Below are positions 5,752 to 31,023 of a DNA stretch of 32,000 nt, piece by piece. The stretch is from Methylorubrum extorquens (lineage in GTDB: Bacteria > Pseudomonadota > Alphaproteobacteria > Rhizobiales > Beijerinckiaceae). The stretch covers positions 1,500,001-1,532,000 of the forward strand of contig LT962688.1 in NCBI GenBank assembly GCA_900234795.1, given 5' to 3'. Position 1 is the first letter of the stretch. Each line of letters starts with the position of its first letter. A program made the position numbers and the translations under genes. The notes under the pieces were generated by a model. The model ran no database searches. It was not told the origin of the DNA and was given only the letters and a program-made list of their open reading frames with translations.

Positions 5752-6939
5752 TCAGAAGGGGCCGGGCTTCGACCAGACGGTGTGGTTGACCTGATCGATG
5801 TAGGACAGGACGATCCGCACGACCTTGGTCGAAACCGCGCCGCCCTGGTAATCCGGCACGGCCCCGGCGAAGCGGCGGCCCTCACCATAACCGTCGCGCA
5901 CGGCCCGCACCGCCTCGACCAGATCGACCTTGCCGAGCGGCGCCACGATCAGCGTGCCGGCATCCATGCCCTCCGGCCGCTCATGCGCGTCGCGGAAGGT
6001 GACCGCCGGCAGGTCGAGCAAGGCCGCCTCCTCGGCGATGGTGCCGCTGTCGGACAGGACGCAATGGGCGCTCGTCTGAAGCTTCACGTAGTCGATGAAG
6101 CCGAAGGGCGGCAGGAAGCGAACGCTGTCGGGCAGCGACAGATCGCCCACGGCTTCGAGCCGGGCGCGGGTGCGCGGATGGGTCGAGACGACGATGGGCA
6201 GGCCGAACGCAGCGTGCAGCCGGCCGAGCTCTTCCAGGAAGACTCGCAGCCGGGCCGGCGAATCGACGTTCTCCTCGCGGTGGGCCGAGACGATGAAGAA
6301 CCGGTCCGGTTCGAGCCCGAGCCGGGCCAGCACGTCGGAGGCCTCGATCTTCGGGCGGAACTCGTCCAGCACCTCTTCCATGTGCGAGCCGACCTTGAAG
6401 ATGCGCTGCGCCGGCAGCCCCTCGGCCAGGAGGTAGCGGCGGGCATGCTCGGTCAGCACGAGGTTCACATCGCTGAGGTGGTCGATGACCTTACGGTTGA
6501 TCTCCTCCGGCACCCGCGGGTCGAAGCAGCGGTTGCCCGCCTCCATGTGGAAGATCGGGATCTTGCGCCGCTTGGCCGGGATCACGGCGAGCCCCGAATT
6601 GGTGTCGCCGTAGATCAGCACCGCGTCGGGCTGTTCCAGTTCGAGCACGGCGTCGGCGCGCTCGATCACCCGAGCGATCGTCGCCGCCGCATTCGGTCCG
6701 GCCGCTTCGAGGAAGTGGTCGGGCTTGCGGATGCCGAGGTCGTCGAAGAAGACCTGATTCAGCTCGTAGTCGTAGTTCTGGCCGGTATGGACGAGAACGT
6801 GGTTCGTCAGCCGGTCCAGCGCCCGGATCACGAGCGACATCTTGACGAGTTCGGGCCGCGTTCCGACCAGGGTGAGGATTTTTTTCAAAGGTCTCGGTCC
6901 CGGATCGGAGGCTGGAGCGCATTCCGACGAAGTGCTCAC
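5752..6939 (-). CDS. non-hydrolysing UDP-N-acetyl-hexosamine 2-epimerase, FnlC/WbvD/Cap5G-like
   Basis: 395-aa ORF with KILTLVGTRPELVKMS, HTGQNYDYELNQVFF, IYGDTNS and IFHMEAGNRCFDPRVPEEINRKVIDHLSD. This is the signature of the FnlC-type branch of the WecB family. It is the last gene of the L-hexosamine operon. Confidence 0.85.
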   Translation of the reverse strand: MSTSSECAPASDPGPRPLKKILTLVGTRPELVKMSLVIRALDRLTNHVLVHTGQNYDYELNQVFFDDLGIRKPDHFLEAAGPNAAATIARVIERADAVLELEQPDAVLIYGDTNSGLAVIPAKRRKIPIFHMEAGNRCFDPRVPEEINRKVIDHLSDVNLVLTEHARRYLLAEGLPAQRIFKVGSHMEEVLDEFRPKIEASDVLARLGLEPDRFFIVSAHREENVDSPARLRVFLEELGRLHAAFGLPIVVSTHPRTRARLEAVGDLSLPDSVRFLPPFGFIDYVKLQTSAHCVLSDSGTIAEEAALLDLPAVTFRDAHERPEGMDAGTLIVAPLGKVDLVEAVRAVRDGYGEGRRFAGAVPDYQGGAVSTKVVRIVLSYIDQVNHTVWSKPGPF

Positions 6940-7014
6940 CGGTTCATCGAAAGAATGCGCGTCAAAACAAGAACCTAGAGACGCTGACCTGATGCAATCA
7001 GGTCGGATACGGCT

Positions 7015-8049
7015 CTAGGAGGCGGCCCTGGTCCGCGAGGCGGGCTTCAGGGCTTGCTGGATGTAGTCGAGCTTGAGCAACAGATCGATGACCTGCTGCT
7101 GGTTCATCCGCTGCGTGTTGTGCGAGGTATAATCCTCGGCGGCCGAAATCGCCGTCTCGCCGGAGGTGAAGAACTTCGAGTAGTTTAGGTCACGGTCGTC
7201 GGCGGGGATGCGGTAGAACCCGTCCATGTCCTCGGCCCGCGCCATCTCCTCGCGCGAGACCAGGGACTCGTACAGCTTTTCGCCGTGGCGCGTGCCGATA
7301 ATCTTGATCTCGTTCTTGGCTTCAAAAATCGTCCGCAGGGCTTCGGCCAGATCCTGGACCGTGCAGGCGGGCGCCTTCTGCACGAAGATGTCGCCCTGCT
7401 GTCCGCGCTGGTAGGCGAACAGCACCAGATCGACCGAATCCTCCAGCGACATCAGGAAGCGGGTCATCGTCGGATCGGTGATGGTGAGGTCGCGCCCCTC
7501 TTTGATTTGGTTCACGAAAAGCGGAATCACCGAGCCGCGCGAGGCCATGACGTTGCCGTAGCGCGTGGCGCACAGGATCGTGTCGTCCTTGGCCAACATG
7601 CGCGACTTGGCGATCGTCAGCTTCTCCATCATCGCCTTGGACAGACCCATGGCGTTGATCGGATAGACCGCCTTGTCGGTCGAGAGTACGACCATCCGCT
7701 CGACGCCCGACGCGACCGCGGCGTTCAGCACGTTCTCGGCCCCGAGGATGTTCGTGCGCACCGCCTCCATCGGATAGAACTCGCAGGACGGCACCTGCTT
7801 CAACGCCGCCGCGTGGAAGATGTAATCGACGCCCTTCACCGCCGGCGCGATCGAGTTGTACTCACGCACGTCGCCGATGAAGAAACGGACCCGCGGATCG
7901 CGCAGCAGGAGGCGCATGTCCTCCTGCTTCTTCTCGTCGCGGCTGAAGACGCGGATCTGGCCGATATCGGTGGCGAGGAAGCGCTGGATCACCGCGTTAC
8001 CGAAGGAGCCGGTACCGCCGGTGATGAGGAGTGTCTTGCCGGAGAACAT
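7015..8049 (-). CDS. UDP-GlcNAc 4,6-dehydratase/5-epimerase, FnlA/WbvB/CapE-like
   Basis: The real start is ATG at 8049 (MFSGKTLLITGGTGSFGNAVIQRFL...), giving 344 aa. Also present: FSRDEKKQ, FIGDVRE, IFHAAALKQVPSCEFYPMEAVRTNILGAENV, LSTDKAVYPINAMGLSKAMMEK. The track ORF extends upstream to 8400, but that extension overlaps the reductase gene and is Arg/Pro-rich. The start overlaps the upstream stop by 1 nt (TGATG). Confidence 0.9.
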   Translation of the reverse strand: MFSGKTLLITGGTGSFGNAVIQRFLATDIGQIRVFSRDEKKQEDMRLLLRDPRVRFFIGDVREYNSIAPAVKGVDYIFHAAALKQVPSCEFYPMEAVRTNILGAENVLNAAVASGVERMVVLSTDKAVYPINAMGLSKAMMEKLTIAKSRMLAKDDTILCATRYGNVMASRGSVIPLFVNQIKEGRDLTITDPTMTRFLMSLEDSVDLVLFAYQRGQQGDIFVQKAPACTVQDLAEALRTIFEAKNEIKIIGTRHGEKLYESLVSREEMARAEDMDGFYRIPADDRDLNYSKFFTSGETAISAAEDYTSHNTQRMNQQQVIDLLLKLDYIQQALKPASRTRAAS

Positions 8050-8924
8050 CAGCGGATCCGTGAGAAGGCTTCGTCGTCGAAACGACGCATGTTGCGGATG
8101 AGATCCGGCCAGGACGGCGGTGCGTAGCCGACCGCGGCCCGGAACCGGTCCGAGTTGAGGGAGCGGTCGATCGCCACCGCGTCGTCGGGCTCGATCTCGG
8201 TTGCGACGCCGTAGACGTCCTTCACGATCCCGAGCAGGTCGAGCTTGCTGATCGGGTCCACGCTCACATGGTAGACGCCGCGCAGTGACGGGTTCGGCAG
8301 CACATGGTCGGCGATCACCCGCACCAGCTCGTCGGTGGTGAGGCCCGAGAAGATCGCCCGCCGGTAGCCGCGCACCGAACCGCTCTGGGCCAGGAACCAC
8401 TCAACGAGACCGTTGCGGCTGCCAATCTCACGACCGATGATGGAGGTGCGCAGCGTGACCGCGTTCGGGTAATCGACCTCGCCGAGGAGCTTCGAGCGCC
8501 CGTAGAGATCCTCCGCATCCGGGACATCGCTCTCGCGATAGTCGCCTTTGCGGCCGGTGAAGACGCAATCGGTGCTCACATGGATGAGGCGAGCGCCGAC
8601 GAGGTCGGCCAACCGGGCGAGCCGGTGCGGCAGGATGGCGTTGATCGGGATCGCGACCAGCGGGTCCTCGGCGGAGGCGAGCTGCTTGACGACGCCAACG
8701 CAGTTCAAGACCACGTCGGGCCGCACGTCACGCAGGAAGCCGGCCAGCGCGTCGGCATTCTCGACGTCGATTCCGACCGTGATGTTGGCGGCATCTTCCG
8801 GAAAGATCTTTTTTACAGCCGAGGAGCGCGCCGTCGCATAGACCGACCCAGGAAAGCTTTTTGACAAATATCGAAAGGCGGCACTTCCAAGCATGCCGGA
8901 TGAGCCTAAGACTGCAATCTTCAA
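8049..8924 (-). CDS. RmlD-like NDP-4-keto-6-deoxy-hexose 4-reductase (WbvR-like)
   Basis: 291-aa ORF with a TTG start. Rossmann motif MKIAVLGSSGMLGS. Other motifs: DVVLNCVG, IHVSTDCVF, and YGRSKLLGE (YxxxK). Its length and architecture match RmlD-type reductases, not the roughly 370-aa FnlB/WbjC/CapF type. Confidence 0.8.
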   Translation of the reverse strand: MKIAVLGSSGMLGSAAFRYLSKSFPGSVYATARSSAVKKIFPEDAANITVGIDVENADALAGFLRDVRPDVVLNCVGVVKQLASAEDPLVAIPINAILPHRLARLADLVGARLIHVSTDCVFTGRKGDYRESDVPDAEDLYGRSKLLGEVDYPNAVTLRTSIIGREIGSRNGLVEWFLAQSGSVRGYRRAIFSGLTTDELVRVIADHVLPNPSLRGVYHVSVDPISKLDLLGIVKDVYGVATEIEPDDAVAIDRSLNSDRFRAAVGYAPPSWPDLIRNMRRFDDEAFSRIR

Positions 8925-10173: not shown

Positions 10174-11169
10174 TTGACCCTTTCCGGAAAACGCGTGCTC
10201 GTCACGGGCGCAGGCGGCTTCATCGGGAGCCATCTCACCGAGGAAGCCGTGCGGCAAGGCGCCAAGGTGACGGCGCTGCTACACTACAACGCCATGCGGG
10301 ACCGCGGAAATCTGTCCGGCGTCTCCCCCGAGATCGATCGCGAGATCGAGTATGTCTTTGGCGATATCATCGATCCGGAATACGTCCAGGCGATCACGAA
10401 GGACATCGACATCGTCTTCCATCTCGCCGCGCTGATCGCCATCCCGTACTCGTATCTGGCACCGCGCAACTACGTGAAGGTCAATGTCGAGGGCACGCTC
10501 AACGTGCTCGAAGCGGCGCGCCGACACGGGGTGCAGCGCGTCGTCCATACCAGCACGTCGGAAGTCTACGGGTCGGCGCAATACGTCCCGATCGACGAGG
10601 CGCATCCCCTGCAGGGACAATCGCCCTATTCGGCCTCGAAAATCGGCGCCGACAAAATCGCCGAGTCCTACTACCGGTCCTTCGACGTTCCGGTGGTCAC
10701 CGTGCGGCCGTTCAACACCTACGGTCCGCGCCAGTCGGCCCGTGCTTTCATCCCGACTGTCATCATGCAGGCGCTGGAGCCCGAGCGGACCGTAATCAAG
10801 CTCGGCTCGACCACGCCGGTGCGGGATCTGACCTTCGCCACCGACACCGCCAACGGGTTCCTGACCGCGGCGGTGACCCCGGGGCTCGAGGGCGGCACCT
10901 TCAATCTGGGGGTTGGCTCCGGCCAGACGGTCGGTGAGGTAACAGCCATGATCCTTGAGCTCGTCGGCTCGAAGGCCGTGATCGAGACGGACGAGCAGCG
11001 TATCCGCCCGAGCAAGAGCGAAGTGGAGCGGCTGATCTCCGACAACCGCTTGTTCCAGGCGCAGTCAGGCTGGACGCCGAAGGTCGGCCTGCGTGAGGGG
11101 CTGGAGCGGACGATCGAGCACTTCCGGTCCCAGCGCGACCGGCGGGATGTCGATCGCTACGTCGTTTGA
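10096..11169 (+). CDS. extended-SDR NDP-sugar 4,6-dehydratase/epimerase family protein
   Basis: Motifs: VLVTGAGGFIGSHL, HLAALIAIPYS, HTSTSEVYG, YSASKIGADK (YxxxK), VRPFNTYGPRQ. An alternative and probably better start is TTG 10174, preceded by GAGGGG (331 aa). Confidence 0.85.
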   Translation: MSGAGDGRAVGVEGRAAAPANEGNDRLTLSGKRVLVTGAGGFIGSHLTEEAVRQGAKVTALLHYNAMRDRGNLSGVSPEIDREIEYVFGDIIDPEYVQAITKDIDIVFHLAALIAIPYSYLAPRNYVKVNVEGTLNVLEAARRHGVQRVVHTSTSEVYGSAQYVPIDEAHPLQGQSPYSASKIGADKIAESYYRSFDVPVVTVRPFNTYGPRQSARAFIPTVIMQALEPERTVIKLGSTTPVRDLTFATDTANGFLTAAVTPGLEGGTFNLGVGSGQTVGEVTAMILELVGSKAVIETDEQRIRPSKSEVERLISDNRLFQAQSGWTPKVGLREGLERTIEHFRSQRDRRDVDRYVV

Positions 11170-11179
11170 GAGTAGAGCA

Positions 11180-11896
11180 ATGAAGGCCATCATTCTCGCC
11201 GGCGGCAAGGGCACGCGCCTGATGCCCTATACGGCTGTCATGCCCAAGCCGTTGATGCCGATCGGCGAGATGCCGATCCTCGAACTCCTGCTGCGCCAAC
11301 TGCGCCAGCACGGGGTGACGGACGTCATCCTGGCCGTGAACCATCTCCATCATCTCATCCGGAGTTTCTTCACGGACGGATCGAATCTCGGCCTCAACAT
11401 CACCTACAGGGTGGAGGACAAGCCGCTGGGCACCAGCGGCCCGATCGCCGCCAACCTCGATCAACTGCCCGACCACTTCATCGTCACGAACGGCGACCTT
11501 CTGACGACGCTGAACTTCTCGGCGATGGTGCGCGAGCATCTCGATCGTGGGGCTGCCGCCACGATCGCGACCCACCGCCGGACGCTGCAAGCCGATTTCG
11601 GGGCGCTGACGGTTGGACCTGACTTGAGCGTATCTGAGTACCGCGAGAAGCCGGCGATGCATTTCGAGGCCTCAATGGGCCTCTATGTCCTCTCGAAGAA
11701 GGCCGTCGCGCCGCTCATTCCGGCCGACACCTTCTTCGACATGCCAGACCTTGTGCGCGCGCTTCTCGCGTCGTCACAGAAAGTCGTGAGCTACGTCGAG
11801 GATTGCGACTGGATTGATATTGGTCGTCCCGACGACTATGCCCGCGCCCAGGAGCAGTTCGTGGCCCGACCCGAGCATTTCCTTCCGGCTGCCTGA
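11180..11896 (+). CDS. sugar-1-phosphate nucleotidyltransferase
   Basis: ATG 11180 gives MKAIILAGGKGTRLMPYTAVMPKPLMPIGEMPILE, the G-x-G-T-R-L pyrophosphorylase signature. Length 238 aa. It starts 10 nt after the SDR stop. The track start 11093 overlaps the previous gene. Confidence 0.9.
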   Translation: MKAIILAGGKGTRLMPYTAVMPKPLMPIGEMPILELLLRQLRQHGVTDVILAVNHLHHLIRSFFTDGSNLGLNITYRVEDKPLGTSGPIAANLDQLPDHFIVTNGDLLTTLNFSAMVREHLDRGAAATIATHRRTLQADFGALTVGPDLSVSEYREKPAMHFEASMGLYVLSKKAVAPLIPADTFFDMPDLVRALLASSQKVVSYVEDCDWIDIGRPDDYARAQEQFVARPEHFLPAA

Positions 11897-11904
11897 CTTG
11901 ACCC

Positions 11905-12349
11905 TGACCTGCTAAATTGGTCCGCGCTGAGCGTAAATTGTTCGGGCATCCTGAACCCTGAAGGAGGGTGGATGCCTCGCATACGCTTTACTGAACGAGC
12001 AGTTTGCCTTTGCTCTGTGGCAGGCAGAGAGCGGTACCTCGGTGGACGGGGTCTGCCGGAAGATGGGCGTGTCCGAACCGACGTTTCATCGCTGGAAGAA
12101 GCAGTTCGTCGGCATGGGCGCCCGGAGATCCGGCGGCTCAAGCAGCTGGAGGATGAGAATAGCAAGCTGAAGCGGCTGGTCGCCGACCTGACGTTGGACC
12201 GCTCCATGCGGCAGGACGTTGCTCAAGCGAAAGTAGTGAGGCTCGCCGCTCACCTGTAGGTGGCTTACGACGACAGCGAGCGTCGGGCCTGTCAGGCCAC
12301 CGGCTTCGGCCGTTCGTCCCGGCGCTACCGCAGGCGCTCGCATCCGCAA
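11905..12349 (+). mobile_element. decayed, 3'-truncated IS3-family element (left end, broken orfA, first ~25 codons of orfB)
   Basis: The terminus TGACCTGCTAAATTGG starts at 11905. RBS GAAGGAGGG is followed by ATG 11972 (MPRIRFTE). The orfA HTH continues in another frame (EQFAFALWQAESGTSVDGVCRKMGVSEPTFHRWKKQFVGMG). The leucine-zipper part lies in a third reading (EIRRLKQLEDENSKLKRLVADLTLDRSM). The orfB beginning, ERRACQATGFGRSSRRYRRR, ends abruptly at the stop of the next gene. Confidence 0.8.
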
Positions 12350-13264
12350 TCAGACGTGCATCCCGGCAGAGTTGAGTGCCTTTCGCATTAGGCTTGGAAA
12401 ATCCGTGGGCGGCACCGACAGCCCGAACGCGCGTAGGCGCTCGCCGCTGCCGTAGACGCAATCGGTGCTGCTGATGCCATGAATGCTGCGGTCGGTTTCG
12501 ACGGTGATGGACTTGCCTGAAACCGCGATCAGCATACGGACTACGTCCGAAAGCTGCGTTGGCTCGCCGGTGCAGACATTAACGATCTGCCCGCGCGCCT
12601 CTGCAGTCCGACTCAGCACCTCGAGGACACGGGCGGCCTCCTCGACATCAACGAAATCTCGCCTTGCGTGGAGCGAGCCGGTCACAAGGATCCCGCCCTC
12701 TGGGCCCATCCGCACGATTTGAGCGATAAAACGCCCCAGGGCGAGATGCTCGGGCATGCCGGGGCCGATAACGTTGAACAGTCGCGGCATGACAACTGGA
12801 AGGCCTCTGCCCGCAGCTTCAAGGCCGAGGAGCGTCTGGCGCAGCTTCGTTTGTCCGTAGGCGGTTTGAGGGCGCGCCTCTGCACTCTCCCGGACCGGAA
12901 GCTGGTCTGGACCCAGGGCACCGTACTCAGCAGCGGTCCCGCACAGAATTGTAACGGGTGCAGATTCGAGTGCGGTAACAGCTTCGAAAAGATGCTCCGC
13001 ATAAACGACGTTGATCCGGTGAAGCGCCTCAGGGCTGCCGACCGCCGATCCGGCGAGATGATAGATGACGTCGGGTCGAGTTTCAGCCACGATTCGGCGG
13101 ATGGTGGCGCCATCGTCGCAGTCGCTCAGCGGGAGATGATGGTCTTCCCATCCGGCTGCAGGCCGACGTCCCATCGTCGTCAACCGGTAACCGCAAAGCT
13201 CCAAATGCTGGAGCAAGACCTGGCCCAGAAAACCCGAACTTCCGGTCACTAGGGCTTGTTTCAT
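12350..13264 (-). CDS. extended-SDR NDP-4-keto-6-deoxy-sugar reductase, Rmd-like
   Basis: 304-aa ORF. Motifs: MKQALVTGSSGFLGQ, VIYHLAG, YGQTKLRQT (YxxxK), RLFNVIGPGM, ARRDFVDVEEA, VNVCTGE. These are collinear with GDP-6-deoxy-lyxo-4-hexulose reductase (Rmd)-type enzymes as I remember them. Confidence 0.75.
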   Translation of the reverse strand: MKQALVTGSSGFLGQVLLQHLELCGYRLTTMGRRPAAGWEDHHLPLSDCDDGATIRRIVAETRPDVIYHLAGSAVGSPEALHRINVVYAEHLFEAVTALESAPVTILCGTAAEYGALGPDQLPVRESAEARPQTAYGQTKLRQTLLGLEAAGRGLPVVMPRLFNVIGPGMPEHLALGRFIAQIVRMGPEGGILVTGSLHARRDFVDVEEAARVLEVLSRTAEARGQIVNVCTGEPTQLSDVVRMLIAVSGKSITVETDRSIHGISSTDCVYGSGERLRAFGLSVPPTDFPSLMRKALNSAGMHV

Positions 13265-13353: not shown

Positions 13354-14001
13354 TCAACGGGACGAAACAAGCAGATAGACCATAATAGACGCTGAGCATA
13401 GCAGGGATAAGGCTGCTGCCGCGAAGGTGGCGATTAGAAGTGCAGGCGTCTTTTGCGGTGATAGCCTCGACAAGGCGCTCAATTGCGGTTCAAGCCAAGC
13501 GAAGCCAGCTTGTGTCTCGGATTTCAGCGTATCGATCCGCTCGCCGATGTTTGCAAACGATCTCGGCAATTCCGACCAGGAGCCTGCGTCATCTCTGGAA
13601 TCGGCTGCCGGAACGGGGGAAGAAGGAGAAGCTGTCGGAGGGGCCGGGGAAGTTACTTCAAGTAGGTCGAGGACGAATGGATCGCCATTGTCGATCGTAT
13701 CGCCCGTGTCGAGAAAGTGGACCGATACTGAAACGCTACCGATTGGACCGAGTTGGCTCACATCAAAGCTGAAGATTCGCGCATTGCTGTAACCCAGCCT
13801 GCGGAAATCCTCGTCGGCCATATAGTGAGAAATCACCGGACCGGGCTGGCCGTCGATCTTGAGGAACACGGCCGGCGGATGGGAGCCGCTCCGGCTCGCC
13901 GTCGTTCCCTGGAGGTATCGCGGGCCCCTTGCTGCCAAATAGCCCCACGTGCCATCAGCTCGCCAGAGCGGATGCTGCCGCTCGCCGGTTTTCTCGGACA
14001 T
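13354..14001 (-). CDS. hypothetical protein, C-terminal single transmembrane anchor
   Basis: 215-aa ORF in the lower-GC block. It has an N-terminal globular part, a Pro/Ser-rich linker (TSPAPPTASPSSPVPAA) and a terminal hydrophobic stretch (PALLIATFAAAALSLLCSASIMVYLLV). It starts 20 nt downstream of the coiled-coil ORF. No family was recognised. Confidence 0.55.
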   Translation of the reverse strand: MSEKTGERQHPLWRADGTWGYLAARGPRYLQGTTASRSGSHPPAVFLKIDGQPGPVISHYMADEDFRRLGYSNARIFSFDVSQLGPIGSVSVSVHFLDTGDTIDNGDPFVLDLLEVTSPAPPTASPSSPVPAADSRDDAGSWSELPRSFANIGERIDTLKSETQAGFAWLEPQLSALSRLSPQKTPALLIATFAAAALSLLCSASIMVYLLVSSR

Positions 14002-14021: not shown

Positions 14022-14309
14022 TTACTGGGTCGGACGCGCATTCGACTTCGTCGTCTCCAGCTCCGTGAGGCGATCCCGCATCCGTGCCAGAATGTCGATG
14101 GTGCGCTGGTGATCGCTGCGCAGGACATAGATCTCGAGCTTTCTGTCGGAGGCGGTCGCCTCAGCAGACGCCTTCTCAGCTTCGAGGCGGCGATTTTCCT
14201 CGGATAGGCGCTCCACCGCCGCCGCCAGCTCGCCCACTCGCATGCGGAGGCGGTCGCGTTCCTCAGCGAGGGCGCTCAACTGTTCCGCGCTTAGTCTTGC
14301 CGTTGACAT
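14022..14309 (-). CDS. hypothetical small coiled-coil protein
   Basis: 95-aa ORF, rich in heptad-like Leu/Glu/Arg (LSALAEERDRLRMRVGELAAAVERLSEENRRLEAEKASAEA...MRDRLTELE). It is same-strand and closely spaced with 13354..14001. No family was recognised. Confidence 0.5.
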   Translation of the reverse strand: MSTARLSAEQLSALAEERDRLRMRVGELAAAVERLSEENRRLEAEKASAEATASDRKLEIYVLRSDHQRTIDILARMRDRLTELETTKSNARPTQ

Positions 14310-14696: not shown

Positions 14697-15284
14697 TCAA
14701 CCGATCTGCTCAGGCGCCGAATCTATGTGCCATAGCCCCCCCTCCCGCCGCATGGCGCGCTGGGTTCCGACGAGTTGCGCCGCCGCAACCAAATCCTCGT
14801 ACTGTATCTCGCACTTCCGATAGGGCCACTGATCGAAGTTATCATTCATTTCGTGGAAAAGCTGATCGAGGCTGCGACCGTACATGCCCGGAGCTCCTTC
14901 GAAGAGTTCGCCGCGATCCTGGTAGCTCTTGGCGACCTGACTTCGGTCACGCGTAATTTTGAGGAGAACAGGCTGCTGGGGGAGGCTGGCGACCGTCTGT
15001 GTCCAGAGCGGTAGCGTGAATGTCAAACGAGGATCCTTCAAGGCAAAGGGCGAGCGCAGTTGCGTGAGGTAATGCTGGGCACGATCGTAGATGTCAGACT
15101 CGAACGTGCCGCTTCGATAGAGGTCGTTCAATTCGCGCATTCCGACGCTCTCGCAGAACACTTCGTCTGCGTCATTTCTTTCCCATCCCAGCTGGAACAT
15201 AACGTTGGCAAGTATTGATGTTCCGCTGTGTCCGACACCGATGATTATGACATCTGGTTTTTGTGCGATGCTTGCTTCCAGCAT
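14697..15284 (-). CDS. sulfotransferase-like P-loop protein (PAPS-dependent family suspected)
   Basis: 195-aa ORF. GVGHSGTS at residues 16-23 resembles the 5'-phosphosulfate-binding loop. KDPRLTFTLPLW and LLKITRDRSQVAKS (107-120) resemble the RDPxDxxxS 3'-phosphate-binding element. A small nucleotide-kinase fold cannot be excluded by eye. Confidence 0.6.
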   Translation of the reverse strand: MLEASIAQKPDVIIIGVGHSGTSILANVMFQLGWERNDADEVFCESVGMRELNDLYRSGTFESDIYDRAQHYLTQLRSPFALKDPRLTFTLPLWTQTVASLPQQPVLLKITRDRSQVAKSYQDRGELFEGAPGMYGRSLDQLFHEMNDNFDQWPYRKCEIQYEDLVAAAQLVGTQRAMRREGGLWHIDSAPEQIG

Positions 15285-15526
15285 TTATCTCTCCAGCCAC
15301 GGTGTTCGCGGAAGATCTTGTTTGTAGTGTTGACCTTCCTTCTACGAGTTGGCACAAGAGCACGCGTTCGGGGTTCGAGAAACGCGAAAGCGATGTGGCC
15401 TCGTCACCATGTCGCTTCAAAGCGACCGGAAATCGTGTGCCAGCCGAACGCTCCACTGGTCAAGGCGATCGTATCAGTCACGAGCCAGTTCCGTCCGCGG
15501 TCGTTGCTGCACCGCAATAAAATGGG

Positions 15527-15988
15527 ATGCTGATGGTCAAGGCGCCGAGAGTGCTGGTCGATGCGCGCGAAACCGACCTCTTGAGAGGCTTCCATGCCCT
15601 CGCTGTCACAGAGTGCCTGCTACGTGCCGGCATGAAGGCAGATTGGCACTTCCTGACAGAAGGGGATCCGGACGAACAGCTAGCGATCGCCTCGCTGCGC
15701 TTCGATTGGTCGATCGCTGTCTCCTCCTGGGATGGGCGCACGGCGACCGAAGACTTCGATCTGTACGTCATCGTCGGAGATGCCTTCCCGGCCGATCCGA
15801 CCACCGAGGCCGCATTGCAGGCCGCTCGCCTCACCCTGGCAGGCCTGACCTCGGCCTCGGAGCTGCCCGTGCGGCCTGCCGTCCTGTGCATGTTGGGGCA
15901 CGACACCGCCGCTTTGGCCGGCATGGCAGCGACCCTACTTCGGGCGGAACACATAACGTCGGGCTCCTCTCTCGGATGGAGACGGTAA
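15527..15988 (+). CDS. hypothetical protein, partner of the downstream glycosyltransferase
   Basis: 153-aa ORF. Its TAA stop overlaps the ATG of the next gene (TAATG at 15986-15990). It shows weak collinear similarity to the 144-aa product of 28351..28785, which holds the same position upstream of the paralogous GT. Confidence 0.55.
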   Translation: MLMVKAPRVLVDARETDLLRGFHALAVTECLLRAGMKADWHFLTEGDPDEQLAIASLRFDWSIAVSSWDGRTATEDFDLYVIVGDAFPADPTTEAALQAARLTLAGLTSASELPVRPAVLCMLGHDTAALAGMAATLLRAEHITSGSSLGWRR

Positions 15989-17214
15989 TGTCGCAGCGTG
16001 CTCGGCTCCGCCTTCTCGTCGTGGGCATGTCCAACAGTCCGCATCTGCATCGCTGGGTGAGCATGGTCGCCCGGCCGGATGTGGCAATCGTCGTGTTTCC
16101 CTCGCTGAGCTTCCCGGTGAACCTGCCGGAAGGCTTTCGGCTGATCGATCTAGCAGATGTGACTGAGGATCTGGAGCCGGGCATCTTCCTTCTGACACAC
16201 ACCGAGAGCCGCAGGGAGGAGGACACGCTTGAGGATCGAGATTGGGGCTATGTGCCGTTCTCGCACAGCTTCGTTCCCCCTCACATGCTCTCGACCCCGG
16301 CTGCACTCCTGCGCTGCATCGACCGGCTTCGCCCTCATCTGCTGCACGGGATGGAGACGCAGATCGCCGGCTATCTCTGTGCGGAAGCTGCGCGGCGAGC
16401 GGCCAACTTCCCGACTTGGATCCAATCGACCTGGGGCAGCGACCTGTTCCTCTTCCGCAAGCTGGAGGGTCATCCGGAGCGATTGAAAAAGGTGTTCGGG
16501 CGGGTTCAGATACATCTGGCCGATTGTGCGCGAGACCGGCCGATCGCGCGGCAGTTCGGTTATCAGGGACCGGACATGCCGATCGTTCCCTCGTCGGGCG
16601 GTGTGAGTATCGATGACATGCGCCGCTTCGGTGGGACCCCACCGTCGAAACGGACGCGGATCCTCGTCAAAGGATATCACAACTGGGCGGGACGAGCTTT
16701 GCTCGGCCTCTCGGCGCTCACCCTGGTGCGGGATGAACTCAAAGGCTTCGGCATCGACATCCTTGCCGCCGGACCACGCGTGAGGGCGTGGGCTCAGCAG
16801 ATGAGCGCGACGCTCGGAATGGAGGTGCGGGCCCTCGATTACATGGCCGATCACACGGATGCGCTCCGTCGCTTGGGCGAGGCGCGCTTAGTGATCGGGC
16901 TCGGCATTTCGGACGGCCTCTCCACCACGGTGCTCGAAGCGATGTCGGTTGGAACCTTTCCGGTCCAGAGTTGCACCAGTTGCTGCGACGAATGGATCCA
17001 GGATGGGCAGACTGGTCTCATCGTGCCGCCGTCGGATACGCGCGCGATCGCGAATGCCATCGTCAGGGCCGCGACCGACGACGAGCTCGTCGACACCGCC
17101 GCCCGCAGGAACCTCGAAACGGTCAGCCGGCGCTGGAGCACTCCAGCTAACCGTGTGATGGCTTGGCGGATCTACGACCAAGCCTTAGGCAAAACGGCTG
17201 CCTCCAGGGTTTGA
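15988..17214 (+). CDS. GT-B fold (GT4-like) glycosyltransferase
   Basis: ATG 15988 (MSQRARLRLLVVGMSNSPHLHRW...), 408 aa. The C-terminal domain reads RILVKGYHNWAGR...ARLVIGLGISDGLSTTVLEAMSVGTFPVQSCTSCCDEWIQDGQTGLIVPPSD...ATDDELV, an EX7E-like region. The track extension back to 15349 is Arg-rich and overlaps the 153-aa gene. Confidence 0.85.
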   Translation: MSQRARLRLLVVGMSNSPHLHRWVSMVARPDVAIVVFPSLSFPVNLPEGFRLIDLADVTEDLEPGIFLLTHTESRREEDTLEDRDWGYVPFSHSFVPPHMLSTPAALLRCIDRLRPHLLHGMETQIAGYLCAEAARRAANFPTWIQSTWGSDLFLFRKLEGHPERLKKVFGRVQIHLADCARDRPIARQFGYQGPDMPIVPSSGGVSIDDMRRFGGTPPSKRTRILVKGYHNWAGRALLGLSALTLVRDELKGFGIDILAAGPRVRAWAQQMSATLGMEVRALDYMADHTDALRRLGEARLVIGLGISDGLSTTVLEAMSVGTFPVQSCTSCCDEWIQDGQTGLIVPPSDTRAIANAIVRAATDDELVDTAARRNLETVSRRWSTPANRVMAWRIYDQALGKTAASRV

Positions 17215-17280: not shown

Positions 17281-20200
17281 TCAGCCTTCCACGAGTGCTT
17301 GAACCCGGTCGATCATGCGCTCGATGTCGAAATGCTCGCGGGCGAAGGCCTGGGCCGCTTGGCGGGCTCGGGCAGTCCGTTCGGGATTGTCGAGATACGA
17401 GAGAACGGCGTCTGCGAGCGCCTGCGGATCCGATCCGGCGACGGACACGCCGGTCTCCCCCGGACGTATCGTTTCATCGATGGCGCCGACCCGCCGCGAC
17501 ACCACGGGCACGCCGCTGGCCTGGGCTTCGATGATCGCGTTCGGCATCCCCTCGCTGAAGGAGGTGAGCAGGAAGACGTCGAGCGCTGGCAAGGCCGCAT
17601 AGGCATCCTCAAGCGCTCCCGTGAACCGGAAGGCGCCACTCAGCCCGAGTTCGGCGGCGGCATTCTTCATTGCCGGGAGCAGCGGTCCGTCGCCGATGAC
17701 GGCAAAGACGGTGTCGGGTCTGCGCGCTGCGACGGACGCAGCCACCTGCACCCAGAGCAGCGGCGCCTTCGGTAAAGCGATGCGCATCACGACACCGACG
17801 ACGGGCCGGTCGGCATCGATGGAAAGGGTTTGGCGCGCCCGCGCACGGGCAGCAGGGTCGAGGGCCGAGTGGAAGCTCCCGATCTCGAACCCGCTCGGCA
17901 CGATGCTTGCGCGGCCCTCGAGATCGACTCCCAGCCAATCGGCGTAATCGTCGACACAGGTCTGAGCCATGCCGGTCAGATGGACTTCGGGGCGGGAAAG
18001 AAGCTGCCGATAACCTTCCCTGTACCAGTGACAGGCATCCGCATCGTCGATGAAGTCCGGCGGCCGCATATTGTAGGTTCCCAGCAGAATCCGGGGAACG
18101 CCGGTCAGCACGGCGGCGAGGCCGCCGACGAGGTTAGGGACTTCGAGATGAGCGTAGAGCACCGCGGGCTTGCGTGCCCGAAACAGCTCGATCAGCCACT
18201 GGTGATAGGACGAGGCTCCTATCCATTTGTAGGGTGCCTCAACCCTCTGTACGTCATCGTAAATGAGTAGCTCTTCGCGGGCATGACCTGTCTCCGACAG
18301 GTAGAAGCTCGTGGCGCGCTCCTGCGCGCAATCGAACAGCAGCAGTTCAACCGGCCGCGACCCGAGCCGCTTGCGCAGACGGGCGAACAGCATCGCGACC
18401 AATCGTTCGGCACCGCCGCGCGCCAGGGTCCAACTGAGGATGAAGATGGGCCCGCCCGGACGGGGCGTGGGTGGTGGTGTGGAGCGCACAACGCGCTCCA
18501 GCACCTTCACTGCCGCCTCCGTATGGGGAGCGCCGGGTACGACATCCATCGCTGCGACGAAGTCGGCGAGGCTCGACAGCGCCTCGCTCAGCGCCGAGTC
18601 GGAACTGAGCGCAGATGCCGATCGCCGCAGAATCACTGCATCTCCGGCGGGAAGCGTGGTGACCGGTTGCACCTCCAGCAACGCGCGAGCGAGGTCGGCA
18701 TTGCCGGGCGCCTCGGCCAAGCCGGCTCGAACGACCTCTGCCGCCTCCGCAAGCCGCCCCGTCCGGCGCAGAAGCCTGAAGTATGACAATGCCCCCTCTA
18801 CCGGATTCAGGGCGATGGTACGCTGCACCAAGTCGGAGACACGCTGCAGCATATCCAGCGATGCGTTGCCGTCGAGCAGGGCCTGAGAAGCGAGGCACGC
18901 CAGGGCCGGTGTGGTGATGCCGGTGCGGACGGCGCGTTCCGCTTCGACCCGGGCCCAATTCCGTTCCCCCATCTCGATCAGCAGGCTCAGGGCTTGGAGC
19001 CGCAGTTCCTCGTTATCGGGATAATGCGCGCGGGCATGGAAGATCGTTTGCAGCGCCTTGTCGAGTGCCCCCCGTCCCTGATGCAGATGCATGCACCGGA
19101 TGAAGGCGTAGGGGGACGGCTCCGATGTCTCGAGGAGCCGCTCGAGCCAGTCGAGCGCCCCGGCAGAGTCACCGGCCTGCTGCGCGAACTGGCTGAGCGC
19201 ATCGAGAGCCTCCGGGTCGTTCGGCTCGTCGGCCAGCCGCAACCCGTAGAGATCTTTCGCCAGTAGGATTTGGCCTTCCGCACCGAGCCGCCGGGCGGTC
19301 GCGTGCAGCGCTGCCACGTCGCGGGTCGTTCGGTAGGCCTGGGTTGCCTGATCGGCCTCGCCGGCGAAGGCAATCGCCCGGCGGCTCTCCGCCAGTCGCT
19401 CGAGCTTCGAAACCTGGCGGGAATGGGCCGGGTCGGCTTCAAGGGCGCTGCACAGGGCATCGATCCGTTCCAGGATCGAGTTCCGGCCAAGTGCGAACAG
19501 CGCATGGGTCCAATGAATGTCCGAGAGGGCACCACTGATACCGAGGACTGCGTGTCGCCGGGCGAGCCAGATCGCCACCAGTGCGTCTTCGGCCGGCCCC
19601 GCGGTCGCTTCGAATCGGAAACCGCCGAGGAAGACCGTACGGTGTATCATCAGGGCCGAGGTGGCCACCGGACAATCCGCGATGATCTCCGGGTAGGTCG
19701 TCTCCCCGAGGCTGCTTCCCGGCCCAGCCGGCTCCGTGCCTCCGCCTCCGACAGAATAGCCGGTATATGAGACGGTGCGGCCCGCCTCCGCCATCGCATC
19801 AAGCTGGCGTAAGATCTTATCTGACAAAAAGGTGTCGCGAGGGTCGAGGAAGGCCAGATAGTGGCCGCGCGCCTGCTCCATTCCCGTGTCGAACGGATCC
19901 GCGCCTGCTTCCGACGGAATGCGCCGTACGCGCGGGTCACCCGCGATCGCCGCCTCCAGATCGGCTGGAAGCGGGGCATCGGTGACGAGGATCACCTCGA
20001 GATTGGTGTGGCTCTGCTGCAGGATCGAGCGCAGCGCCCGTACCGGATCGGCGCCCGCCGTGCGGACCGAACGATCGCAGGGAAGAATGACCGAGACCAG
20101 GGTCTTCGCGGCTGACCAAAGCGCAGCCTGCTCATGGCCGTAGGCCGCCACCTCCGCGATTCCGGCAGATCCGTAGTAGGTAGCATTCTCCACAAAGAAG

Positions 20201-21060
20201 CGCTTCTCGCTGCCCTCCATCTGAACCCGCTGCGTCTCAGAGCGTCCGTCCATCAGGCGCTGAAAGAGCCTGTTCCGCTCAATCAGCGATCCGGGCTTGT
20301 GAGAATCCTGGCCGGGATGGGTTCTGTAATGAACGTGTGCTTCCTTCTGTAGAAAGAACTCGTGTTCTTGGGAGATCCTGAGCCAGAGATCATAGTCCTG
20401 CGTGTACCGGAGGGATTCGTCAAATGGATAAAATTCTTTGATGATCCATGCAGGAATATAGAGCGTGCACCCGTTGACAAGGCCGCGATGAAGCGGCAGG
20501 AGCGGCTTTTCTGTAAGCAATCCAAGCTCAATATCGGTGGTATAAAAAAGTTTTCCTTCCGGATCGATCAGGCCGTAATCTGTAAAAAGAATCGCATTTG
20601 GCCTATTTAGGCGCCGATGAAAGGAGACTTGTGACTCGGTTTTATGAGGGAGGTATATGTCGTCGTGGCTAAGCCAAGTGAATACGTCGCCGGTCATGTG
20701 GCGAATCGCCGTGTTCAGCGCGCCAGACACGCCGCGATTTTCTTGGCTAAAATATCGGATCCGATCGGAGTACTTTAGCGCAATCCGCTCCGTCTCTCCG
20801 CCGTCGTTGGACCCGTCGTTGACGACAATAATCTCTATGTTTCCGTAAGTTTGCGCTAGCGCACTACGAAGTGCCAGCTCGAAATATCGGCCACCATTCA
20901 TGACCGGCATCACGATCGTGACCTTCGGATTGGGCATCACAGCTGGCTCGGACTCGCCCGCTGATCCGAACAGCCGACCACTGTCTCGATGGGTCAACGC
21001 TCCCTTGTGCAAGCTGTCGTCTGTCTTGACAGTCCGATCCTGCAGGATTGCTTCGCCCAT
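17281..21060 (-). CDS. 1259-aa multi-domain glycosyltransferase: GT2 + second GT2-like + TPR-like helical array + GT4 (GT-B)
   Basis: GT2-1 (aa ~46-255) has VTIVMPVMNGGRYF...IIVVNDGSNDGGETE...ENRGVSGALNTAI...TWLSHDDIY. GT2-2 (aa ~321-520) has VSVILPC...LEVILVTDAP...YLAFLDPRDTF. The helical repeat region (aa ~570-800) includes NDPEALDALSQFAQQAGDSAGALDWLERLLE and HYPDNEELRLQALSLLIEMGE. The GT4 domain (aa ~870-1259) has FAVIGDGPL...FLLTSFSEGMPNAIIEAQASGVPVVSRRVGAIDETIRPGETG. Confidence 0.9.
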   Translation of the reverse strand: MGEAILQDRTVKTDDSLHKGALTHRDSGRLFGSAGESEPAVMPNPKVTIVMPVMNGGRYFELALRSALAQTYGNIEIIVVNDGSNDGGETERIALKYSDRIRYFSQENRGVSGALNTAIRHMTGDVFTWLSHDDIYLPHKTESQVSFHRRLNRPNAILFTDYGLIDPEGKLFYTTDIELGLLTEKPLLPLHRGLVNGCTLYIPAWIIKEFYPFDESLRYTQDYDLWLRISQEHEFFLQKEAHVHYRTHPGQDSHKPGSLIERNRLFQRLMDGRSETQRVQMEGSEKRFFVENATYYGSAGIAEVAAYGHEQAALWSAAKTLVSVILPCDRSVRTAGADPVRALRSILQQSHTNLEVILVTDAPLPADLEAAIAGDPRVRRIPSEAGADPFDTGMEQARGHYLAFLDPRDTFLSDKILRQLDAMAEAGRTVSYTGYSVGGGGTEPAGPGSSLGETTYPEIIADCPVATSALMIHRTVFLGGFRFEATAGPAEDALVAIWLARRHAVLGISGALSDIHWTHALFALGRNSILERIDALCSALEADPAHSRQVSKLERLAESRRAIAFAGEADQATQAYRTTRDVAALHATARRLGAEGQILLAKDLYGLRLADEPNDPEALDALSQFAQQAGDSAGALDWLERLLETSEPSPYAFIRCMHLHQGRGALDKALQTIFHARAHYPDNEELRLQALSLLIEMGERNWARVEAERAVRTGITTPALACLASQALLDGNASLDMLQRVSDLVQRTIALNPVEGALSYFRLLRRTGRLAEAAEVVRAGLAEAPGNADLARALLEVQPVTTLPAGDAVILRRSASALSSDSALSEALSSLADFVAAMDVVPGAPHTEAAVKVLERVVRSTPPPTPRPGGPIFILSWTLARGGAERLVAMLFARLRKRLGSRPVELLLFDCAQERATSFYLSETGHAREELLIYDDVQRVEAPYKWIGASSYHQWLIELFRARKPAVLYAHLEVPNLVGGLAAVLTGVPRILLGTYNMRPPDFIDDADACHWYREGYRQLLSRPEVHLTGMAQTCVDDYADWLGVDLEGRASIVPSGFEIGSFHSALDPAARARARQTLSIDADRPVVGVVMRIALPKAPLLWVQVAASVAARRPDTVFAVIGDGPLLPAMKNAAAELGLSGAFRFTGALEDAYAALPALDVFLLTSFSEGMPNAIIEAQASGVPVVSRRVGAIDETIRPGETGVSVAGSDPQALADAVLSYLDNPERTARARQAAQAFAREHFDIERMIDRVQALVEG

Positions 21061-27309: not shown

Positions 27310-28354
27310 TCAGACGGTCGGCACGGCGTTGCGGGAGACATGGCCGAGCATGTGGCGATAGATCGATCGCGCTGCCGCACCGTTACGGCCTGCATCCCAC
27401 CGCTCCTCCACACGTGTCCGATTGCGCGTGGCAGCCGCATCGACCAGCCTGTCGTCGGTCGCGGCCTGCACAAGGGCTTCGGCAAGGCCATTGACGTCAT
27501 GCGGATCGACGATGATGCCGTCGCGGCCGCTCTGCACCCATTCGCAGGCACAGGAGGTCATGGCCTTGATCGGGAAGGCACCGTAGCACATTGCTTCGAG
27601 AAGGGTTGTCCCGATCCCGTCCGAAATCCCGATGCCGATGACGATGCGAGCTTCCGCAATCCGGGCGAGCGCTTCCTCGTGGCTCGGGTCATAGAGGACA
27701 GGCGCGATGTCGAGTCTGTCCGCTTCCGCCATCGCTTGCATCATCTCCAGCATCGCTGCGGAGCAGAACTGCACGCGGACGCGATAACCGCGCAGGGCGG
27801 GCGCGGCGAGGTGTAGGGCGGATAGAATATGCATCCCACGACCTGACCAGCCATGATAGCCCTTCACCAGGATCGTATTGCGCCGTGATGGGGGTGTGAG
27901 CTGGTCGAGCGGCGGAACGGTGCTGAAATCGATCCCGCCGGAGGCCGGCAACGGGTCGAAGGCTTGCCCCTTCAGGCCGAGCCGGCGCGCCAGCGGCACG
28001 TCGCGCCGGCACTCTGCCAGATAGCCGTCGATGCTGCGCATCAGTTCGAGCAAGATTGGACGGTGCGCGGGCAAGCGGTGATAGAGATAGATGTCGCTTC
28101 CCCAGTTCGAGAGGAGCCACGTGAGTGATTTGGAAGACACCTACCTCACCGGGACCGAGAGCCTCGACGTCGCTGCGGCTAGTGACGGGCGACCAAGGTT
28201 GCAGTTCGGATGCTGGTTTTCCATCGTGGACAGGGAAGACGACGAAGCGCGCAAGGTCGCCGCGCAGCATGTTAAGCCAGCGTGCCAAGTGCACGCTGTT
28301 CTGCATCCCGACGATCAAGACAGTCGGGCGGGTTCCTGCCGCGCGCTCGGTCAT
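27310..28354 (-). pseudogene. disrupted paralogue of the 15988..17214 GT4-like glycosyltransferase (internal deletion plus frameshift)
   Basis: The N-terminal piece runs from ATG 28354 (MTERAAGTRPTVLIVGMQNSVHLARWLNML...GVFQITHV). The C-terminal piece is in another frame, from GTG 28140, with a TAG immediately upstream (SSKSLTWLLSNWGSDIYLY...ILVKGYHGWSGR...ARIVIGIGISDGIGTTLLEAMCYGAFPIKAMTSCACEWVQSGRDGIIVDPHD). About 70 residues present in the intact paralogue are missing between the two pieces. Confidence 0.7.
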
Positions 28355-29306: not shown

Positions 29307-29383
29307 TGGCGCGCCCGAAAGGATTCGAACCTCTGACCCCCAGATTCGTAGTCTGGTGCTCTATCCAGCTGAGCTACGGGCGC
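29307..29383 (-). tRNA. tRNA-Arg (anticodon ACG)
   Basis: The reverse complement folds as GCGCCCG-TA-GCTC-AGCTGGATA-GAGC-A-CCAGA-CTACGAA-TCTGG-GGGTC-AGAGG-TTCGAAT-CCTTT-CGGGCGC-G-CCA. It is 77 nt with an encoded CCA. Confidence 0.9.
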
Positions 29384-29429: not shown

Positions 29430-29476
29430 TGGTCGGGGTAGCAGGATTTGAACCTGCGGCCCCCACGCCCCGAACG
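29430..29476 (-). repeat. orphan 3' half of a tRNA-Pro gene (anticodon loop to CCA), att-like direct repeat of 31764..31810
   Basis: 43 of 47 positions are identical to the 3' part of the intact tRNA-Pro, in the same orientation. No matching 5' acceptor strand (CGGGGTA) or D-arm follows it. Confidence 0.75.
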
Positions 29477-29804
29477 GGGGACGTGCGCCGACGCCGCTTC
29501 TACTAGGCGGGTTTTCCCTTGGGAGCAACCCCCTTCGTCGTCTTTCTCCGTGGTTCGTCATCGTCCGCGATCCGTGGCCCGCGAGCCCCAACCTGTGGCC
29601 GGGAATGTGCCGTGAACGCCGTATCCCGTTCCAGATCACGCCCCCGTTGCCGGGCCGGCTTGCCCCCAGGCTGGGCCGGCGCGAGAATCCCTGCATGCCC
29701 GGCGACAGCTACCCGCCCGAGACCGCCTGCGTCCTCGAAGGGATGACCCCACCCCGGCTACCGCCCGGTGCTGCGCTCTCAGGCGGGGCTCGACGACAGT
29801 ATTG

Positions 29805-30401
29805 TTATGTCGCACTCAGGCCGAGTAGCGCATCAATCAATGGGGAAGCCGTTTCGGCAACTGACGCCCCCATCGTTCGGAGCGTCAGGTCGGGCGTCTC
29901 TGGCGCTTCGTACGGAGCAGAGACACCGGTGAAATTAGGAATTTTGCCGGCACGCGCCCGGTCATAGAGGCCTTTGGGGTCACGCGCTTCGCAGATCGAG
30001 AGCGGCGTGTCGACGAAGACTTCGAGGAAGGGAATGTCTCCCGCTATCGTCCGCGCCGCCGCGCGTTCAGCGCGGAAGGGCGATATCAGTGAGACGATCA
30101 CCACAAGCCCCGTCTCCGCCATCAGCCGCGCGGCTTCGGCGGCGCGGCGGATGTTCTCCACCCGGTCGGCTGCCGTGAAGCCGAGGTCGCGGCTTAGGCC
30201 CTGACGCAGGTTGTCGCCATCAAGCACCATGGTGCAGCGGCTGATTTCGGTCAGCGCACGATCGGTTGCGTCGGCGATGGTCGATTTGCCGGCTCCGGAC
30301 AGTCCGGTTAGCCAAGCGATGGCTGGCCGCTGCCCCATCCGGGTCCAGCGTCGCTCCCGTGGCTGAAAAGGCTGCCGAAATACGTCAGTGCCGCTGTTCA
30401 T
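29805..30401 (-). CDS. cysC: adenylyl-sulfate (APS) kinase
   Basis: From ATG 30401 the product reads MNSGTDVFRQPFQPRERRWTRMGQRPAIAWLTGLSGAGKSTIA (P-loop). Further motifs: LDGDNLRQGLSRDLGFT, DRVENIRR, VSLISPFR, FVDTPLSICEARDPKGLY, AGKIPNFTGVSAPYEAP. Length 198 aa. It is monofunctional, with no CysN fusion. Confidence 0.9.
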   Translation of the reverse strand: MNSGTDVFRQPFQPRERRWTRMGQRPAIAWLTGLSGAGKSTIADATDRALTEISRCTMVLDGDNLRQGLSRDLGFTAADRVENIRRAAEAARLMAETGLVVIVSLISPFRAERAAARTIAGDIPFLEVFVDTPLSICEARDPKGLYDRARAGKIPNFTGVSAPYEAPETPDLTLRTMGASVAETASPLIDALLGLSAT

Positions 30402-30562
30402 AGCCGCTCGTAGTCCTCCTAAGCTACCATCGCAACTAGCGCGGATATTTCGCAACCCTCGTGACATCAGCGCCCGCATATTGGCGCAACAGCTTCACTC
30501 CAACGCCCAGGCAGCCCGCAGAGCGTCGATCGCCTCCTGCTTCATGTCTGCGTACCCGCTGT

Positions 30563-30977: not shown

Positions 30978-31023
30978 AGGGCGGACCGCACTAGTCTCAG
31001 GCTCACCTCGCTCGGAAACTGAT

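Follow-up and report, generated by a model that had tools for sequence, protein, structure and literature searches.

A compact sulfotransferase-like protein beside a glycosyltransferase module in a glycan island of Methylorubrum extorquens

Sulfated surface glycans and the loci that produce them are known from rhizobia, from Campylobacter HS:19, and from the capsules of Vibrio and Cobetia (PMC8743553, PMC11641403, PMC11766843, PMC11625862). Few bacterial glycan sulfotransferases are known, their cataloguing is poor, and the Pfam seeds miss many of them (PMC11625862). Here we describe a gene that may belong among these enzymes. It lies at 14697-15284 on the minus strand of a 32,000-nucleotide stretch of Methylorubrum extorquens DNA (contig LT962688.1, positions 1,500,001 to 1,532,000; hereafter the window, whose coordinates are used throughout). 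Comparison with other proteins indicates that its 195-amino acid (aa) product, the sulfotransferase-like (ST-like) protein, belongs to a divergent, uncharacterized, and unusually small branch of the sulfotransferase superfamily. The kind of system is already known. What is unusual is that no curated model covers the family, that its core is shorter by about 100 residues than that of characterized enzymes, that a histidine is nearly invariant in the 5'-phosphosulfate-binding (PSB) loop, and that the family is systematically coupled to glycosyltransferases (GTs). We lean toward reading the protein as a compact O-sulfotransferase dependent on 3'-phosphoadenosine 5'-phosphosulfate (PAPS) and acting on a sugar of a glycan made by the surrounding gene island.

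The Campylobacter jejuni HS:19 cluster, with its cysDN, cysC, sulfotransferase, and glycosyltransferase genes (PMC8743553), and the sulfated capsule clusters of Vibrio and Cobetia (PMC11641403, PMC11766843) are systems of the same kind, in which a surface-glycan locus is joined to a predicted sulfotransferase and a PAPS supply. Their activation genes are contiguous with the sulfotransferase, unlike those of the window, and the likeness holds at the level of the locus. The NodH-NodP/NodQ system for rhizobial Nod-factor sulfation also combines a bacterial carbohydrate sulfotransferase with a dedicated adenosine 5'-phosphosulfate (APS) kinase, and the window encodes an APS kinase (cysC) that is 65% identical to the NodQ kinase domain. 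However, nodH, nodP, and nodQ sit together in a single cluster, whereas this cysC stands alone without CysD or CysN and 14.5 kb from the ST-like gene. The original prediction judged that the ST-like protein does not resemble NodH, and we agree: the family profile scores 1.2% against R. etli NodH in hhalign, a tblastn search of the window with NodH returns nothing, and identity as a NodH-type Nod-factor sulfotransferase was rejected on these two results. The WbdD chain terminators of ABC-transporter O-antigens (PMC3482155) add a small charged group and are P-loop- or kinase-fold enzymes encoded beside wzm/wzt, as are several relatives of the ST-like protein. WbdD is a kinase plus methyltransferase, however, and the window has no wzm/wzt, and the comparison is an analogy only.

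The ST-like open reading frame (ORF) starts with ATG directly downstream of a Shine-Dalgarno-like GGAGAG stretch. In its product, residues 16-23 read GVGHSGTS and residues 107-120 read LLKITRDRSQVAKS, which matches the original description exactly. Homologs in Pendulispora, Pirellulales, and metagenomes share 40-61% identity over 84-96% of its length, and a profile search of the family yields 3,254 cluster representatives at E<0.001, including 161 at E<1e-30. The ORF is therefore coding rather than a chance reading frame. An identical protein is deposited from strain TK 0001 as SOR28223.1 ('protein of unknown function'), and the UniRef name for it is already 'Sulfotransferase'. The gene is single-copy in TK 0001, and the only NCBI occurrence of the protein is in that strain. 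A genome scan with a six-sequence ST-like alignment as query gave no match in the GTDB representative genome of the species.

Profile comparisons point to the sulfotransferase superfamily. All six of the closest homologs have weak Sulfotransfer_3 matches, three have Sulfotransfer_1 matches, and none matches a kinase family. When a 46-sequence family profile (A2) is run against a 5.8-billion-sequence database, it reaches proteins with precomputed Sulfotransfer_3/_1 domains at E values of 2e-7 to 4e-4, and these proteins score above the Pfam gathering cut-offs. An hhalign comparison of the family with such Pfam-passing sulfotransferases gives a probability of 99.4% (E 1.3e-21, 150 columns) and places GHSGTS on hRSGTS, KDPRF on KDPRF, and R112...S120 on vRxPxxvaxS. 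The two motifs that had been proposed as the 5'-PSB and 3'-phosphate-binding (3'-PB) elements thus align with those elements in recognized sulfotransferases. The matched proteins with the pattern 'hRSGTS ... KDPRFS ... vRxPxxvaxS' (for example P0206, P0207, P0210, and P0214) are themselves uncharacterized and about 250-270 aa long. Their motifs are collinear with those of the window protein, and some of them likewise have His in the PSB loop. They differ in passing the Pfam cut-offs, which the family of the window protein fails, and in being 60-80 residues longer. A hidden Markov model built solely from Pfam-accepted sulfotransferases matches one of the 309 six-frame ORFs of the window, the ST-like ORF (E 1.9e-15), and finds no second ST-like ORF among them. 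As a control, hhalign of the family against the APS kinase of the window gives 0.16%, and none of the profile searches with the ST-like protein or its family brings up a kinase family.

In a recent review, the sulfotransferase class is defined by four traits: a catalytic Lys or Arg in the PSB loop, a 3'-PB helix that bears a serine, a base that is either His or Glu, and a sheet of three to five strands (PMC11625862). Conservation was counted over 197 distinct family domains. Position 45 is Glu and position 83, the first of the KDPR residues 83-86, is Lys in all 197. Position 112 is Arg in 147 and Lys in 50, and position 120 is Ser in 187 and Thr in nine (Ser or Thr in 196 of 197). At position 19 of the PSB loop there are 179 His, six Arg, and no Lys. 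The position that would hold the lysine of a Walker-A GxxxxGK[ST] loop (T22) is Thr in 181 and Ser in 12, and that lysine is never present. In the predicted structure, the 5'-PSB-type loop G16-V-G-H19-S-G-T-S23 (form GxxxxGT[TS]) lies between a strand at 12-15 and a helix at 22-31, and the 3'-PB-type residues R112 and S120, the serine eight positions on, belong to a strand at 106-111 and a helix at 114-123.

This arrangement can be compared with that of the glutamate-base sulfotransferases, whose catalytic residues are R79/E100/K159/S286 in TPST1 and R78/E99/K158/S285 in TPST2 (PMC5562738). The PSB residue, Glu, Lys, and 3'-PB R...S occur in matching order and at approximate spacing, and H19/E45/K83 followed by R112...S120 would mirror the TPST layout if E45 and K83, which we map by order and spacing rather than by superposition, are the equivalent residues. 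The TPSTs, Golgi enzymes of 280 aa, have peptides as substrates, and the window protein matches them at an E value of only about 0.7-1. On this model, the strand-loop-helix at 12-31 that contains GVGHSGTS would hold the 5'-phosphosulfate, and the strand-turn-helix at 106-123 with R112 and S120 would hold the 3'-phosphate. His19 could stand in for the usual catalytic Lys or Arg, with invariant Glu45 as the base and invariant Lys83 as the transition-state stabilizer, as for R78/E99/K158 of TPST2. Judged from its sequence, the ST-like protein is probably an active PAPS-dependent sulfotransferase.

AlphaFold (AF2) models reach a predicted local distance difference test (pLDDT) score of 81.6 with six input sequences, and 91.6 with 68 sequences and a predicted template modeling (pTM) score of 0.85. 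The better model is an alpha/beta domain with strands at 12-15, 80-83, 106-111, 131-134, and 157-161, and the C-terminal 20 residues (176-195) are its low-confidence part. In Foldseek searches of the PDB, the pLDDT 81.6 model matches UMP/CMP kinase, the CurM sulfotransferase, shikimate kinase, and TPST2. The top match of the pLDDT 91.6 model is SULT2A1 (E 1.3e-4), followed by adenylate kinase, DHEA-ST, the CurM sulfotransferase, and gluconokinase; SULT1E1 is likewise among the matches. All of the TM-scores are only 0.38-0.50. The protein is thus predicted to adopt the shared P-loop kinase/sulfotransferase fold. Because sulfotransferases and nucleoside monophosphate (NMP)-type kinases have the same fold, the Foldseek result confirms the fold without separating the classes. 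Structure alone is insufficient for this choice, and it is the sequence that favors a sulfotransferase. Among the checks proposed in the original prediction were profile searches and a predicted structure. The profile searches match sulfotransferases and never kinases, but below every curated cut-off, and the better model has a sulfotransferase as its top match, but with kinases nearly as good.

The closest homologs have a common C-terminal R-x-x-G-G-L-W tail (window 14697-14756) that is missing in most of the wider family. We take this tail to resemble the RKGxxGxW 3'-phosphate-binding motif of cytosolic sulfotransferases.

Several findings weigh against a PAPS-dependent glycan sulfotransferase. 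The ST-like protein falls below the Pfam cut-offs for Sulfotransfer_3 (17.5 bits vs 27) and Sulfotransfer_1 (11.7 vs 22), and it has no match in NCBIfam. PDB sequence searches with the single protein and two profiles return nothing significant; the best and sole sulfotransferase match is TPST1 at a non-significant E of about 0.7-1. The PSB-loop Lys or Arg described in reviews (PMC11625862) is His19 here. The core of about 170 residues is some 100 residues below the size of characterized sulfotransferases, and substrate-binding elements are not evident in it. The island encodes no multi-span membrane protein, initiating transferase for a lipid carrier, flippase, polymerase, or ABC exporter. Across 62 loci with relatives (770 kb), a sulfate-activation gene occurs within 10 kb of the relative in only two independent loci. 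Finally, the Foldseek scores of P-loop kinases (UMP/CMP, adenylate, shikimate, and gluconate) are about equal to those of sulfotransferases.

This last point raises the alternative of a small P-loop kinase of the nucleotide or sugar type that would use ATP to phosphorylate a sugar or glycan. UMP/CMP, adenylate, and shikimate kinases and gluconokinase rank beside the sulfotransferases, their target-normalized TM-scores are slightly better because the sizes match, and a domain of 170-195 aa is typical of kinases. However, the Walker-A lysine position is Thr or Ser in 193 of 197 domains and never Lys, the profile searches recover no kinase family, and the hhalign score is 0.16% to APS kinase vs 99.4% to sulfotransferases. 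With these observations against it, a kinase is very improbable. The best matches were not kinases without a PAPS-binding geometry, the outcome that would have spoken for this alternative, and the structure gives no positive proof of a sulfotransferase.

The histidine and the short core could instead indicate a protein that keeps the sulfotransferase fold without transferring sulfate, for example a nucleotide- or glycan-binding accessory subunit of glycosyltransferases. His19 replaces a residue held to be catalytic (PMC11625862), and the domain is often fused or adjacent to GTs. Nevertheless, no positions of the family are better conserved, across phyla, than those with a putative part in catalysis and PAPS binding. 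The Pfam-passing relatives carry either Arg or His at the PSB position, which suggests that His is a tolerated functional variant. The substitution of His19 for Lys or Arg is a real departure, but because some of these relatives also have His it is probably a functional variant rather than decay. A non-catalytic accessory role is therefore improbable, and an active sulfotransferase remains the preferred reading.

The architecture of the family suggests a glycan acceptor. The family is a tight cluster of its own, marked by a near-invariant GVGHSGT[ST], and no curated model covers it. Among the longer members, 85 of 120 extra regions outside the ST-like domain cluster with the GT2 domain, and ten of ten sampled regions match PF00535, nine of them above the Pfam cut-off. 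Further fusions involve GT25 plus GT2, a weak GT1 match, a DXD sugar-binding domain, and a methyltransferase. In 19 fetched genome loci, the relatives are mostly from metagenome-assembled genomes (MAGs) of Planctomycetota, with some from Alphaproteobacteria. On a Phaeobacter plasmid, a distant relative is surrounded by large GTs and by other genes annotated as sulfotransferases. Relatives adjoin wzm/wzt O-antigen-type exporter genes in five independent loci, from an alphaproteobacterial MAG, Nocardioides, Thiorhodococcus, Desulfovibrio, and one metagenome contig. By analogy with WbdD, this hints that some family members may add a terminal sulfate that is recognized by the exporter.

The loci with adjoining exporter genes are L011/L015, L027, L029, L032, and L039, and the Wzt-like protein of Desulfovibrio has 1004 aa. 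One family member from outside the window (P0029) has a complete Portal_Mu domain (E 7e-41, residues 1-377) followed by an ST-like domain. This fusion occurs only once in 217 proteins and may reflect either an enzyme carried by a phage or two genes joined in gene calling.

The neighborhood of the ST-like gene contains a module that recurs elsewhere. Divergent from it on the plus strand are a 151-aa protein with no assigned function (15533-15988) and a 408-aa GT4 glycosyltransferase (15988-17214; Glyco_trans_4_2 plus Glyco_trans_1_4); the stop of the former overlaps the start of the latter, and the two genes are translationally coupled. The long ORF at 15349-17214 that was initially described here is an over-extension. 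On the minus strand, the order is the ST-like gene, a 95-aa gene (14022-14309), a 215-aa gene (13354-14001) whose product has a single hydrophobic segment near its C terminus (residues 184-202), and, last in the string, a 304-aa epimerase/reductase-like protein of the short-chain dehydrogenase/reductase (SDR) family (12350-13264). Gene calls of independent assemblies agree on this order, and one JGI member of the SDR cluster is named GDP-4-dehydro-6-deoxy-D-mannose reductase. An unrelated metagenome contig (L002) encodes a 61%-identical ST-like homolog divergent from an SDR, a 149-aa protein, and a GT4. Identities to the window are 46% for the SDR, 43% for the 149-aa and 151-aa proteins, and 61% for GT4, and the genes around the L002 module are ordinary metabolic genes. 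Because the same set recurs in L002, the ST-like protein, the protein of about 150 aa, GT4, and SDR appear to form a portable four-gene module. The 95-aa and 215-aa genes are not conserved in the other loci examined.

The ST-like gene was originally described as divergent from a glycosyltransferase pair. This is correct for GT4, which lies behind the 151-aa gene, but not for the other glycosyltransferase, a modular protein of 1259 aa (17281-21060, minus strand; GT2, GT2, TPR, and a C-terminal GT1) that shares the strand of the ST-like gene and converges with GT4.

If the ST-like protein is active, then its acceptor is quite likely a glycan made with the neighboring GT4 module. The enzyme would most probably act with its conserved partners, namely the 151-aa protein, GT4, and the SDR as a sugar-nucleotide enzyme. 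A glycan acceptor is the best-supported reading because of the GT2 fusions, the recurring GT4/SDR module, and the relatives that adjoin wzm/wzt. The same three observations count against an active sulfotransferase with some other acceptor, such as a small molecule, a lipid, or protein tyrosine. That alternative could draw on the Pendulispora homolog (53% identity), which has no glycan genes nearby, on the non-significant TPST1 match as the sole sulfotransferase in the PDB sequence searches, and on the lack of export and initiation genes in the island. We regard it as improbable given how far GT2 fusions predominate in the family and how the module is conserved and recurs.

The other island genes encode sugar-nucleotide enzymes, further SDRs, and GTs. 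A minus-strand set at 5752-8924 contains WecB-type 2-epimerase, RmlD-like, and FnlA-like genes. The WecB type passes its cut-off and the FnlA-like type, with 530 bits, stays below its own; this set suggests synthesis of a UDP-6-deoxy-L-HexNAc of the L-FucNAc type. A LegB-like 4,6-dehydratase gene and a guanylyltransferase-like gene occupy 10195-11896. Cytoplasmic protein glycosylation is a possibility for this 23-kb island, which has no membrane-spanning export, flippase, or initiating enzymes. The family might also represent an unrecognized class of minimal sulfotransferases of about 170 residues, with His in place of Lys or Arg and paired with glycosyltransferases, which would give TK 0001 a sulfated glycan; taken as a whole, this broader proposal is unlikely. 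The usual form of such an enzyme would be the GT2 fusion, and in the window it would be a separate subunit of the four-gene module. Its glycan might form directly on a protein such as flagellin, given that genes for a lipid carrier, flippase, or exporter are missing from the island.

The source of PAPS is a separate question. The window contains a monofunctional APS kinase gene, cysC (29805-30401, minus strand; 198 aa), with an intact P-loop GLSGAGKST and strong scores (Pfam APS_kinase E 1.7e-60; TIGR00455 220.5 bits vs 138.7; NF003013 228.5 vs 163). The TK 0001 annotation has a 177-aa version that is labeled 'fragment'. CysD-, CysN-, and CysH-like sequences are absent from the window. The gene is carried on a decayed integrative islet of 2.4 kb (29430-31840), bounded by tRNA-Pro(CGG) (31764-31840, minus strand) on one side and by a partial 69-nt copy of the 3' part of this tRNA (29430-29498, 80% identical) on the other. 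A fragment of an rve_3 transposase (30436-30945, minus strand) lies upstream of cysC inside the islet. The description of cysC as monofunctional, without CysD/N/H neighbors, and on a decayed mobile element is thereby borne out. Because it is on its own tRNA-Pro islet, 14.5 kb from the ST-like gene, cysC was acquired separately from the glycan island.

The best plasmid matches of cysC (56-67% identity) come from nodH-nodP-nodQ clusters, where they are the kinase part of CysN/CysC fusions of the NodQ type, and the 65% identity to R. etli NodQ spans its kinase domain (residues 454-616). A leftover of a truncated nodQ is a candidate origin for the gene. However, there is no CysN or CysD remnant upstream, and the similarity begins exactly at the kinase domain.

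That the ST-like gene and cysC are a dedicated transferase-plus-donor pair is favored by the intact, monofunctional kinase and by its closeness to the kinase domain of plasmid-borne NodQ proteins that serve NodH sulfation. Two loci are also compatible with such a pair. Desulfovibrio sp. 7SRBS1 has a string of wzm, wzt, and a distant ST-like relative, all on one strand, and its CysC gene follows about 9 kb past that relative; in an alphaproteobacterial MAG, cysD is 9.4 kb from a 46%-identical homolog. These two positive loci compare with about 0.15 estimated by chance, and they are too few to carry weight. Against a pair, the two genes are on separately acquired segments, co-localization is confined to these two of 62 loci, and the cluster of cysC at >=90% identity extends to further M. 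extorquens strains, among them that of APX85607, while TK 0001 is the only strain with the ST-like protein in NCBI. The claim that cysC is present in order to supply the ST-like enzyme is thus not upheld, and cysC as its dedicated donor source is doubtful. A role of cysC in donor supply is nonetheless plausible, especially if the host reduces APS directly, as rhizobia do. PAPS could come from the nearby cysC acting on APS from a sulfurylase encoded elsewhere, although the link is weak.

With its GT2 fusions as a clear architectural signature, the ST-like family appears to be one of the blind spots of the Pfam seeds. If the assignment is true, then a His-type PSB loop and a core of 170 residues would be sufficient for sulfate transfer, which would widen the definition of the enzyme class. 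The protein would also be a compact catalyst for glycan engineering, and it would imply a strain-specific sulfated surface structure on M. extorquens, a plant-associated methylotroph. The practical value is moderate, as this is a testable annotation and not a new principle. Literature searches turned up no relevant work on a sulfotransferase, an APS kinase, cysH, or a sulfated O-antigen in M. extorquens.

The placement of the ST-like gene in a lower-GC glycan island, which was also part of the original prediction, is supported by base composition. The gene has the lowest GC of the island genes (GC 0.558; GC at third codon positions, GC3, 0.648). On the left side of the window, GC3 in the flanking core genes is 0.88-0.92, and the remaining island genes lie between these values. 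Because both the ST-like gene and the island fall below the core genes, the segment is foreign, and the glycan island is horizontally acquired. A promoter and terminator scan around the ST-like gene gave nothing informative.

Some further features of the window can be described. The tRNA-Pro gene and its partial copy resemble a degraded attachment-site duplication, and tRNA-Arg(ACG) is found at 29307-29383. An ORF at 31024-31644 (plus strand) looks by eye like the C terminus of a tyrosine recombinase, but it has no Pfam match. The window and 25 read-archive assemblies all contain an intact 304-aa SDR, whereas the TK 0001 annotation has a 146-aa 'fragment' (SOR28219.1) of the same cluster; the mismatch may lie in the annotation or in the sequence. 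A second, decayed GT4 copy at 27310-28354 (minus strand) is a frameshifted and internally deleted paralog without an ST-like partner. It retains residues 143-408 at 42% identity (27322-28122) and, in another frame, residues 1-71 (28121-28354), and the middle is gone. Inside the island, between the nucleotidyltransferase and SDR genes, a 95-aa ORF at 11972-12259 (plus strand; …EENSKLKRLVADLTLDRSM…) resembles by eye a fragment of an IS3-family OrfA transposase.

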